Shown here in pieces: positions 40,546 to 44,424 of a stretch of DNA of 64,000 bases. The stretch lies in NCBI RefSeq assembly GCF_006345805.1, contig NC_043025.1:7068001-7132000 (forward strand), in the 5' to 3' direction. Source of the stretch: Octopus sinensis (lineage: Eukaryota). The notes beneath the pieces are model-generated. The model was not told the origin of the DNA, did not search any database, and saw only the letters and a list, made by a program, of their open reading frames with translations. The translations under genes and the position numbers were made by a program. Within the stretch, counting starts at the first letter, position 1. Every line of letters begins with the position of its first letter.

Positions 40546-40724
40546 TACATCAGTGAACTGAAGCTTATTGCCGACTTTGAGCTGATGTTCAACAATGCGC
40601 GGCACTACAACGAGGAGGACTCCCAGGTGTACCATGACGCCAACACACTGGAGCGTGTCTTGAAGAACAAGTGGAAGTCCCTGTTGGCTCACCAGGACAC
40701 TATCAAGAAGGCCCCCGGCAAAAG
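40546..40724 (+). CDS. PBRM1: Polybromo-1 exon, BD4 C-half (YISELKLIADFELMFNNARHYNEEDSQVYHDANTLE...APGK)
   Basis: ttgcag| and |gtacgt, 179 nt, phase 0-2; matches recalled human NARHYNEEGSQVYNDA. Confidence 0.97.
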
Positions 40725-41530
40725 GTACGTCTGTCCCTCTTTCTTCCCACCCTCCGTCTGCGTGTGTGTGTGTGTCTCTGAGTACCGATGGAAGTGTCTG
40801 TGACCTCATCACCAGGATAGTATCATGATGGCCCCTTGCAAAAGGCGAGTCTGTCCCTCTTTCTCTCCCCCCCCCTCTGCATGTGTGTCTCTGAGTACTG
40901 ATGGAAGTCTCTGTGACCTCATTACCAGGATAGTATCATGATGGCCCCTGGCAAAAGGTGCGTCTATCCCTCTTTCTTCCCCCATCTGCGTGTGTGTGTC
41001 TCTGAGTACCGATGGAAGTGTCTGTGACCTCATCACCAGGATAGTATCATGATGGCCCCTGGCAAAAGGTGCGTCTGTCCCTCTTTCTCCACACCCCCCT
41101 GCATGTGTGTCTCTGAGTACCGATGGAAGTGTGAGTGACCTCATCACCAGGATAGTATCAAGAAGGCCCCTGGCAAAAGGCGCGTCTGTCCCTCTTTCTC
41201 TCCTCCCCCCTCTGCATGTGTGTCTCTGAGTACCGATGGAAGTGTCTGTGACCTCATCACCAGGATAGTATCATGATGGCCCCTGGCAAAAGGTGCGCCT
41301 GTCCCTCTTTCTCTCCCCCCTCTCTGCATGTGTGTCTCTGAGTACCGATGGAAGTGTCAGTGACCTCATCACCAAGATAGTATCATGATGGCCCCTGGCA
41401 AAAGGTGCGTCTGTCCCTCTTTCTCCCCACCCTCCGTCTGCATGTGTGTATGTCTCTGAGTACCGATGGAAGTGTGAGTGATCTCATCACCAGGATAGTA
41501 TCATGATAGCTCCTGGTTAGAAGGTTACAC
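40671..41530 (+). repeat. Tandem array (111-120 bp, 8 units) derived from the BD4 exon 3' end and donor
   Basis: caccagga..tatca.ga.ggcccc.ggcaaaagg at 40691, 40811, 40924, 41035, 41146, 41259, 41371, 41489. Confidence 0.92.
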
Positions 41531-42085
41531 CACTTCATGTTCCTGTCTCCTATTCTATCTGTATCTGCGTGTGTGTGTATGTGTGTTTGTGGTATACCTG
41601 TCTACGTGTGTGCGTATGTGTTTGTGGCGTGTCTGTCTACATGTAAATGACTATGTATGTGTGTGAGGTATCTATGTTTATATAAATGCCTGGACTGTAT
41701 AGCTGTGTGTGTGTGTGGTATATTTCTTCATGTATGTTCATGTGTGTGTAGTTTCCTTGTTTCAGTCATTTGACTGCAGCCATGCTGGAGCACCGCCTTT
41801 AATCAAACAAATCAGTCCCAGGACTTATTCTTTGTAAGCCTAGTACATATTCTATCAGTCTCTGTTGCTGAAGCGCTAAGTTACGGGGACGTAAACACGC
41901 CAACATTGGTTGTCAAGCGATGGTCGTGGGGACAAACACACACACACAAATACATACATACATATATATATACAATGGGCTTCTTTCAGTTTCCATTTAC
42001 AAAGCTTTATATATATGTGTATGTGTGTGTGTGTGTGTGTGTGTGTATTGTCAGTTGATTAATGCAAATTAATTTGTTGTTTCAG

Positions 42086-42215
42086 TAAATCCCGGTCCAA
42101 GTGTGTGTCCCCGCTGTGCATGAAGTTACAAGATCTGTTTGATACCATCAAAGACCATGCTGACTCCCGTGGACGTATGCTGTCGGCTCCTTTCCTCAAG
42201 TTACCACTGAAAACT
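42086..42215 (+). CDS. PBRM1: Polybromo-1 exon, start of BD5 (SKSRSKCVSPLCMKLQDLFDTIKDHADSRGRMLSAPFLKLPLKT)
   Basis: tttcag| and |gtgagt, 130 nt, phase 2-0; matches recalled human DKRGRRLSAIFLRLP. Confidence 0.95.
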
Positions 42216-42315
42216 GTGAGTAGTAGTAGTATTAGTAGTGTACCTGCTTGTTACTCTATTTTAAACTGAAACAAGTAAAAGAGTATATCATCATATATGC
42301 ATATATATATATATA

Positions 42316-42887
42316 TAAACAAATTCAAAATGCGATAAAATAAAATTAATTATTATCGCTGGTGTTTCTAGCACAGGCCATATATTATTCATATATAAGT
42401 ATATTAAAGGCGAAGTATGTACTAGAAACACAGAAGCTTGATAAATTTAGTGAAATGAAGATAAAAACTTTTACTAACTCTGTTCATCTTAGACTGCAGT
42501 TTCGCCTTTTTCAGCAATAAAAATATTTATTTACTCAGGTAGGCTCTTCAGTAAGATTCCTGTTATTATGAAGCGCAACTCGATAGACACATGTGCGTCT
42601 ACTAATTTGCTCTTTCTAACTAATCAGATCACTGCGTAAACGCAGAACGAACCCGACAAACTTGGGATTTCTGGTATATAGTCTAACACTCAAAATTTAT
42701 CGAGAAATATGTAAACAAATTCAAAATGCGATAAAATAAAATTAATTATTATCGCTGGTGTTTCTAGCACCGGCCATATATTATTCATATATAAGTATAT
42801 TAAAGGCGAAGTATGTACTAGAAACACAGAAGCTTGATAAATTTAGTGAAATGAAGATAAAAACTTTTACTAACTCTGTTCATCTTA
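42316..42887 (-). mobile_element. Retrozyme-like or non-autonomous Penelope-type element, 396-nt monomer present 1.44 times
   Basis: 176-bp direct repeats 42316-42491 and 42712-42887 (one mismatch seen), internal HHR, one end at the HHR cleavage site, other end in (TA)n. Confidence 0.75.
42486..42557 (-). ncRNA. Type I hammerhead ribozyme, canonical
   Basis: Minus strand: AUCUUA CUGAAGA GCCU(33-nt loop)AGGC GAAA CUGCAG UC|UAAGAU; 6-bp stem I, 4-bp stem II, palindromic stem III, GUC triplet. Confidence 0.9.
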
Positions 42888-42949
42888 TAATTATCTGTCT
42901 ATCTATCTACGTGTGTATATATAATTATGTGTCCCCCCCCCTTCTTCAG

Positions 42950-43117
42950 GAATATCCCGACTACTATGAGGTTATCAAGAGGCCAATAGACATGCAACGT
43001 ATCCAGCAACGGGTTGCATCGAATCAGTATGAATCCGTCGATGACATGGTTGCAGATTTTGTGCAGATGTTTGACAATGCCTGCAAATATAACGAACCAG
43101 ACTCGTTAATCTATAAG
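42950..43117 (+). CDS. PBRM1: Polybromo-1 exon, BD5 (EYPDYYEVIKRPIDM...FDNACKYNEPDSLIYK)
   Basis: cttcag| and |gtaagt, 168 nt; canonical bromodomain motifs. Confidence 0.97.
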
Positions 43118-43759: not shown

Positions 43760-44240
43760 CATCAGGCCCAGTCAGATCTGGCAGTGTTTCTACGGCTGGA
43801 TGCCCTTCCTAACGCCAACCACTTCGTGAGTGTAGTGGGTGCTTTTTACATGCCACCAGCACAGATGCCAGACGAGGCTGGCAAACGGCTATGATCGGAT
43901 GGTGCTTTTTACGTGCCACCGGCACGGGGGGCCAGGCGAGGCTGGCAAACAGCTGCGATCGGATGGTGCTTTTTACATGCCACCAGCACAGATGCCAGAC
44001 GAGGCTGGCAAACAGCTACGATCGGATGGTGCTTTTTACATGCCACCAGCACAGATGCCAGACGAGGCTGGCAAACGGCTACGATCGGATGGTGCTTTTT
44101 ACGTGCCACCGGCACGGGGGCCAAGCGAGGCTGGCAACAGCCACAATCGGATGGTGCTTTTCATGTGCCACCGGCACGGGGGCCAGGCAAGGCTGGCAAA
44201 TGGCCAGAATCAGATGGTGCTTTTTACGTGCCACCGGCAC
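43760..44240 (-). mobile_element. RTE-tail SINE/LINE 3' end (family C) with internal about 60-bp repeats; also about 1720-2040, 2340-2615, 14120-14600, 33705-34080, 35130-35395, 47070-47440
   Basis: ggatgcccttcctaacgccaaccac core, repeated ggatggtgctttttacgtgccacc units, (gat)n tail in other copies. Confidence 0.8.
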
Positions 44241-44424
44241 AAAAATAAAGCCCAGTTATTCTTTCCAGCTTAATATGATGGTGCCATTTCTGCTGTACCA
44301 ACCTGAGGCACACACTTGCAATATTGTTTCGTGTTCAATTTTTTTATATATTTGAAGAATTGTTTGTTTCATATTTGCTTATTCTTTATTCTGTTTTTTT
44401 TTATTCTTTCTCTGATGGTCCCAG

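Follow-up and report, generated by a model that had tools for sequence, protein, structure and literature searches.

We analysed a window of 64,000 nt of Octopus sinensis DNA (contig NC_043025.1, positions 7,068,001 to 7,132,000 of the forward strand); coordinates given below without a locus name are counted from its first letter. A host gene with bromodomain exons runs along the plus strand here: one exon ends at 42215, and the exon at 42950–43117 encodes part of the bromodomain (PF00439, E 1.3e-19). The 734-nt GT-AG intron between them (42216–42949) contains, on the minus strand, a 572-nt insertion (42316–42887) that amounts to 1.44 units of a retrozyme family. The splice joint from 42215 to 42950 was present in contigs of three of the four runs described below. 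Taken by itself the window copy is ordinary, an antisense intronic insertion, and because of this orientation the ribozyme strand is not part of the host pre-mRNA. Neighbouring intronic DNA carries two tandem arrays, one at 40689–41553 (seven copies of ~112-nt units) and one at 43838–44250 (about six copies of ~63-nt units).

One full unit of 396 nt, 33% GC and numbered from the predicted ribozyme cleavage site, occupies 42492–42887 on the minus strand. Its first part (unit 1–176, 42712–42887) is the 5′ copy of a 176-nt direct repeat and starts at most 2 nt from the cleavage position; the 3′ copy (42316–42491, same strand) ends at 42316, which is the family's fixed end. As had been reported for this DNA, the repeats lie 396 bp apart with one mismatch; in the minus-strand reading they first differ at unit position 117 and next at 177. 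The insertion had been called young on the near-identity of the repeats, a reading that we retain. Next to the fixed end, and assigned to neither strand, is a (TA)n run at 42301–42315, the putative target site. Three further minus-strand features were mapped within the unit: an internal ACAUAU motif (unit 176–181, 42707–42712) in a predicted 12-nt loop, which is the putative priming site; a hairpin just upstream of the fixed end (unit 133–160, 42728–42755, with a second copy at ~42332–42359); and a long hairpin (unit 61–129, 42759–42827), predicted in a family consensus of 13 sequences. In the consensus fold of unit 1–181 from 13 sequences, none of the 29 predicted pairs showed changes on both sides.

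The monomer proved to be non-coding, as claimed: a frame scan of the full unit gave only two ATG frames, of 32–33 codons, and the longest ATG frame inside the window copy has 33 codons. A tRNA search of the window's unit found none. This unit folds better than its shuffles, with z of −2.5 as a linear molecule and −3.7 as a circle (25 shuffles); five other family units gave circular-fold z values of −0.7 to −1.6, and the isolated hammerhead region folds no better than shuffles (z −0.3).

The type I hammerhead ribozyme expected on the minus strand was recovered at 42486–42557 as a match to Rfam Hammerhead_1 (RF00163; 36.5 bits against a cut-off of 34, E 1.8e-7). A local scan reported it; a whole-window Rfam scan with fast filters reported no hammerhead. 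Stem I is 6 bp, the core is formed by CUGAAGA and GAAA, stem II is 4 bp and is extended by a second helix, and stem III is 2 bp closed by a palindromic loop. Predicted cleavage falls after GUC, between 42491 and 42492 on the minus strand, a position that we take from the established hammerhead numbering. Because this site is unbroken in the inserted DNA, it must have been read across during copying. Where stem III is short and palindromic, cleavage is hindered in monomers and permitted in dimers (PMC4209133), and the weak palindromic stem III found here suggests cleavage as a dimer. Since the window copy has a single complete hammerhead, no monomer is expected to be released from it by double cleavage; it is likely the product of 1.44 turns and a dead end.

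We searched the 2.72-Gb genome for exact matches to family motifs. The 16-nt hammerhead 3′ motif had 648 (control 1), the hammerhead 5′ motif 441 (control 41), and the end motif of the window's own subfamily 197 (control 0). Our main tallies rest on 130 loci: 38 from a search that scored the best 40 of 768 candidates, 49 further loci from the first 100 of the 197 end-motif matches, and 43 family loci among 48 taken from the first 100 of the 441 hammerhead-motif matches, the other five of the 48 being chance matches. Fourteen additional loci were also viewed. The locus thus belongs to a multicopy family with a ~400-nt tandem unit and a conserved type I hammerhead, and the alternative of single-copy sequence falls away. 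Complete units are 396–411 nt with 33–35% GC, subfamilies are ~92–99%, 87%, 82% and 75% identical to the window's unit, and copies range from 30 nt to 19 units long, with loci carrying up to 9 and 19 hammerheads. At least two canonical cores were present in 32 of 99 hammerhead-bearing loci, two of the 32 being separate duplicates and not tandems. In locus L033, a copy runs from unit position 29 round to 31, an exact permuted unit, which is present twice by local duplication. Another proposal, that the unit might be only the terminus of a longer coding Penelope-like element, found no support: no such junction was seen in the 130 loci with 0.5–4.5 kb of flank, and a Penelope-like protein match lay inside the element in none of the 130. 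By its sequence the family, dispersed, non-coding and with at least 648 hammerhead copies, is a metazoan non-LTR retrozyme.

Contigs of all four runs guessed to be RNA contain family sequence, some of it spanning the cleavage position; these contigs match the variants of other copies, and they carry information on neither strand, ends nor circularity. The unique part of the host intron had no coverage in the contigs of the four runs.

Conservation of the ribozyme was assessed in two ways. In 13 units chosen across subfamilies, 91.9% of cells in the ribozyme pairs were paired and four pairs had changed on both sides; the covariation score exceeded that of all 500 shuffles and of all slid controls. 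Related sequences can beat shuffles without any structure, so more weight goes to the slid control and to a tally of the core. In that tally of 174 hammerheads, the core was canonical in 144 and carried U4C in 29, the palindromic stem III was unchanged in 169, and the cleavage triplet was GUC in 88 and GUA in 82 (170 together); the free core position was variable. Judged by these patterns of change, the predicted ribozyme fold is under selection. The 29 U4C copies are confined to eight loci in two lineages, one comprising L030, L035, L083 and the 19-unit array (L056), the other L049, L052, L053 and L075. U4C lowers activity in vitro, yet permits viroid infectivity (PMC3088659); with such lineages spreading nonetheless, strong cleavage may not be required.

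The 3′ end of copies, on the ribozyme strand, is fixed at unit position 176–181, where the element runs into (TA)n. By a strict rule this end was found in 114 of 130 loci, 100 of them passing directly into (TA)n and 14 with the motif's internal C still in place ahead of the TA run, a pattern that internal priming would predict. Nine more loci ended at the fixed site on reading, for about 123 of 130; six of the remaining 3′ ends lay elsewhere and one ran into a gap. The fixed end is retained in subfamilies that are only 75–87% alike. Other 3′ ends fall at U-rich plus AU motifs, at positions of about 31, 100 and 232, with two exceptions near the cleavage site (L067 and L144); in L067 (4324–4680) the copy ends at the cleavage site in three tandem 17-nt junction repeats. 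Alternative 3′ ends differ by ~5 nt or ~76 nt, as against the optional 30–40-bp "tail" that lies between two start sites in Penelope-like elements. The original prediction had the element end in (TA)n. The adjoining run is real, but it represents the putative target, present on both sides, and not a tail: in 76 of 94 loci a (TA)n run is also found no more than 30 nt from the 5′ end. Target duplications of metazoan non-LTR retrozymes, where present, exceed 4 bp. One clear target duplication was observed, of 38 nt (L106), and (TA)n hides others; five other duplication hits among the 130 loci were simple repeats.

By contrast with the fixed 3′ end, 5′ ends are scattered. We compared their positions with the cleavage site in two samples defined by motifs, using hand-curated start positions; the window copy belongs to neither. 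Sample 1 has 58 ends (66 loci, less nine without the motif in the terminal unit, plus a second copy at L064), and sample 2 draws on 37 of 43 loci, six having been dropped for gaps, inverted structure, non-standard ends or membership in a distant subfamily. Ends within 3 nt of the site numbered one in sample 1 (0.91 expected) and one in sample 2 (0.42 expected), or 2 of 95 with 1.3 expected. Copying crossed the site 52 times in sample 1, where the compound locus L049 was counted with two crossings, and 36 times in sample 2, giving 88 crossings against two stops. Copies had been proposed to end at their own cleavage site; that rule does not hold, since the other 5′ ends are unrelated to the site. 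For the window copy itself, 42887 is indeed the first base after GUC, but the flank ends in TA, so that the junction could be unit position 1, 2 or 3, and with 5′ ends at the site no more frequent than chance its apparent start there is a coincidence at the level of the family. What the ends show is the reverse: copying begins within the unit and carries on past the cleavage position. A pile-up of 5′ ends just after the cleavage site, noted among the 38 loci, was rejected, as neither motif-defined sample showed a significant excess; the 38-locus search, which took the best 40 of 768 candidates, favoured near-full units. The 5′ ends of L105, L134, L198, L199 and L200 fall at the foot of stem II, 13–18 nt upstream of the cleavage site; others appear to gather along the 3′ edges of predicted hairpins (about 254–262 and 305–319), as if reverse transcriptase had stalled at structure.

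Comparison of variants within and between loci bears on the template. Across 46 loci, the divergence of repeats is 1.7% within a locus and 4.7% against the median other copy. Among copies of the window's group, the two repeats agreed in 112 variant cells and disagreed in 83; most of the disagreements were single changes, and five private variants were among those that agreed. Both repeats of the window copy carry a variant that, among 68 loci, occurs in this one alone. In the 82% subfamily, 52 variant cells were fixed in all covering units of a locus, some of them private to one locus, and 42 occurred in some units only, five of these in more than one unit; no variant recurred at the same unit position in two loci of this subfamily. 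Variants common to all units of a locus point to a monomer bottleneck followed by re-multimerisation, as would occur round a circle. Gene conversion or assembly polishing could also yield homogeneous units. Two observations complicate the picture. The lone mismatch between the window's repeats, at position 117, is a family polymorphism present in nine loci; a single circle could account for it only through recurrent change or switching of templates. Haplotypes form a mosaic along the 19-unit array, which shows that arrays also expand later at the DNA level. At position 126, three loci seemed to carry a variant in the upstream repeat only; this was set aside, being an alignment artefact in L051 and L082, the two that were re-read.

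The family bears the marks of Penelope-like spread that had been predicted: a fixed 3′ end, 5′ truncation, partial tandems, a bias to (TA)n and, in the oldest subfamily, inverted arms. By a count from their structures, 23 of 40 loci of that subfamily have inverted 5′ arms; the 38 loci most similar to the window copy (from the best 40 of 768 candidates) have none. We looked for a possible helper and found an abundant coding Penelope-like family, the best 130 of 15,536 candidates being scored. Four copies (L175–L178; for example L175:1667–4693, plus strand) have open frames of 952–1009 codons with a reverse transcriptase domain (PF00078), a Zn-finger-like linker and a weak GIY-YIG match below the cut-off; a further open frame lies at L064:3600–6150 (plus strand). 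The linker suggests the Neptune or Nematis type. About 100 nt from its fixed 3′ end, with (TA)n beyond, the coding family has a minimal hammerhead-like motif with an unusual core. Comparison of the four intact elements with the unit gave TA-repeat or weak 25-nt matches only. The coding family is evidence of suitable machinery in the genome; a helper role for it is not implied. A coding relative was not found through shared stem III (eight related short hammerheads) or through the most divergent subfamily, and the six of 130 loci with a nearby Penelope-like fragment showed no consistent junction. Candidate fusions at L105, L034 and L088 were rejected because the flanks are ends of other TA-targeting families, as was the frame beside the L064 copy, which is on the opposite strand with a TA run between.

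Other hammerhead families were noted along the way. A second, with a long stem II and 2,240 candidates (L179–L192, L088:4200–4364 and the flank of L034), ends at either of two 3′ positions in (TA)n and also has inverted arms. A third has a compact type I hammerhead (L085, L207–L209, L211 and L214), with an inverted arm in L207. A fourth scores above the Rfam cut-off (L108 and L111–L114), L111 being in a large inverted repeat.

We interpret the octopus family as a non-LTR retrozyme for which a Penelope-like enzyme nicks (TA)n and copies a probably circular 400-nt RNA from a fixed internal site, and give this reading a probability of roughly 60%. The cycle is anchored in the dispersed copies themselves, observed with one fixed end at 176–181, variable 5′ ends and (TA)n on both sides. 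Loci with at least two hammerheads would be transcribed, and the RNA cut into monomers and ligated into circles, as in known retrozymes. The nicked (TA)n end would pair with the ACAUAU motif beside the conserved hairpin and prime reverse transcription. Copying across the cleavage position is observed, and a re-ligated circle may be the reason for it; such a template would permit more than one turn, giving direct repeats and multimers with identical units. Synthesis would stop at scattered places, and the product would presumably be joined to the far side of the TA run by short matches. For the longest array, at least, the observed mosaic adds a last step of DNA-level expansion. In its fullest form the proposal is that a (TA)n-specific Penelope-like reverse transcriptase is primed by pairing of the nicked target with the ACAUAU loop on a ribozyme-made 400-nt circle and rolls from a tenth of a turn to at least eight turns, so that the ends of copies record the whole cycle; this we offer tentatively, at somewhat less than even odds.

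In the main rival reading, the same reverse transcriptase, target and internal priming would instead serve a non-autonomous Penelope-like element copied from linear, uncut multimeric transcripts, with arrays growing by unequal crossing-over and the hammerhead acting elsewhere or only trimming RNA. Much would fit: the anole element mainly uses uncleaved RNA in vitro (PMC11167929), head-to-tail multimers arise from non-autonomous Chlamys elements (PMC8557442), and eight of nine Xenopus retrozyme dimers showed no cleavage in vitro (10.64898/2026.07.22.740005), to which the octopus family adds the haplotype mosaic of its 19-unit array, the continued spread of U4C lineages and a window mismatch that is a family allele. 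A linear multimer would, however, need a monomer bottleneck at each insertion, since variants are nearly always in all units of a locus; it would also have to accommodate the lack of any variant inherited at a fixed unit position across loci, and a canonical hammerhead kept with compensatory changes across subfamilies. We consider a linear template somewhat unlikely.

Cleavage could also have shaped the window copy more directly, if hammerhead cleavage had generated the 5′ end of a linear template RNA and the enzyme ran off that end. The copy starts at unit 1–3, as does L172 of another subfamily, and 5′ ends are mildly in excess in positions 1–45 (12 of 58 in sample 1, 7.6 expected, p 0.073; 6 of 37 in sample 2, 3.3 expected, p 0.11). 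Yet stops within 3 nt of the site are at chance level, at both exact starts element and flank have TA microhomology, the copy in L009 begins 2 nt and those in five loci 13–18 nt upstream of the site, and the window copy itself read through an intact site 396 nt earlier. Run-off can fit single copies, not the rule of the family, and for the window copy we judge it improbable. Spread purely in DNA, by a satellite or a Helitron-like rolling-circle transposon with an incidental hammerhead, would explain why a single end is fixed, next to a hairpin, why targets are AT-rich and arrays tandem, and why a target duplication is usually not visible; arrays do expand in DNA. Against it, selection acts on the RNA catalytic fold of one strand and truncation is polar, toward the 5′ side of the ribozyme strand. 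Helitrons have TC and CTRR termini, and the fixed end of the family lacks them. Inverted 5′ arms, moreover, have been described for Penelope-like elements (PMC8557442, 10.1101/2021.04.23.441226). We regard DNA-level spread as highly improbable, and retain the Penelope-like copying of a probable circle as our reading.

Animal retrozymes, and Penelope-like elements as their proposed helpers, are already known; in the papers compared here, priming and integration are left open. For the priming and insertion of a retrozyme, the octopus family provides a record of unusual clarity, naming a putative priming site, target and template form together with a candidate enzyme family in one genome. If the full cycle is true, this genome would hold direct evidence that a cellular circular RNA undergoes rolling-circle target-primed reverse transcription, and the family would be a parasite able to use a helper without sharing any sequence homology with it. 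In the literature searched, which covered few subscription papers or repeat libraries, we found no octopus or cephalopod retrozyme, and, with the same coverage, no report in which the ends of retrozymes map to (TA)n and priming is internal.

The closest relatives in kind are the metazoan non-LTR retrozymes, which form circles and for which copying by Penelope-like reverse transcriptases has been proposed (PMC7229834); the word "cephalopod" is absent from the main text of that paper. The octopus family has the unit size (about 170–400 nt), tandem arrangement, hammerhead, non-coding nature and low GC by which that paper describes them. Both have short non-coding low-GC tandem units (mussel repeats are 350–390 bp), with one canonical type I hammerhead per unit and forms from dimers to long arrays, and both occur alongside Penelope-like elements with minimal hammerheads (PMC7229834). 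The octopus family differs in its mapped ends (the fixed internal end, (TA)n and inverted arms) and its long stem II extension; on the other hand, cleavage and circles are shown for the retrozymes of that paper and predicted for the octopus family. The vertebrate retrozymes of Li, Clavereau and Pollet (2026, 10.64898/2026.07.22.740005) likewise occur as dispersed monomers and rarer multimers, and Penelope-like mobilisation is proposed there too. The window copy, with its one hammerhead, falls outside their rule that an "active" retrozyme has two consecutive hammerheads; the family falls within it. They report that 24 of 57 Xenopus retrozyme families match known elements, with 21 of 22 being Penelope-like elements; by contrast, no homology of the octopus unit to a coding element was found, and no mollusc is among their samples.

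Among Penelope-like elements, the group comprising Neptune, Naiad and non-autonomous Chlamys elements such as MRC1 (Craig et al. 2021, PMC8557442) has much in common with the octopus family: 5′ truncation, partial tandems, inverted 5′ copies, insertion into microsatellites, which mask target duplications, and head-to-tail non-autonomous copies. Unlike the octopus family, Naiad and most Chlamys elements are described there without hammerheads, and non-autonomous Chlamys elements share 3′ sequence with their partners, where none was found for the octopus unit in comparison with one coding family. In the Poseidon element of Anolis (Frangieh et al. 2024, PMC11167929), the reverse transcriptase initiates internally on its RNA, in a stem-loop, and extends on both strands; hammerhead cleavage is not needed, and uncleaved RNA is used. 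An internal start downstream of the hammerhead, a stem-loop, AT-rich DNA and read-through of an uncleaved ribozyme are likewise features of the cycle proposed for the octopus family. The two differ in that Poseidon is an autonomous element with no homology between start site and target, whereas the octopus unit is non-coding and its putative start motif resembles (TA)n. Because the putative priming site, target, template and enzyme family can all be named, the cycle proposed for the octopus family could be tested in a single in vitro assay of the anole type.
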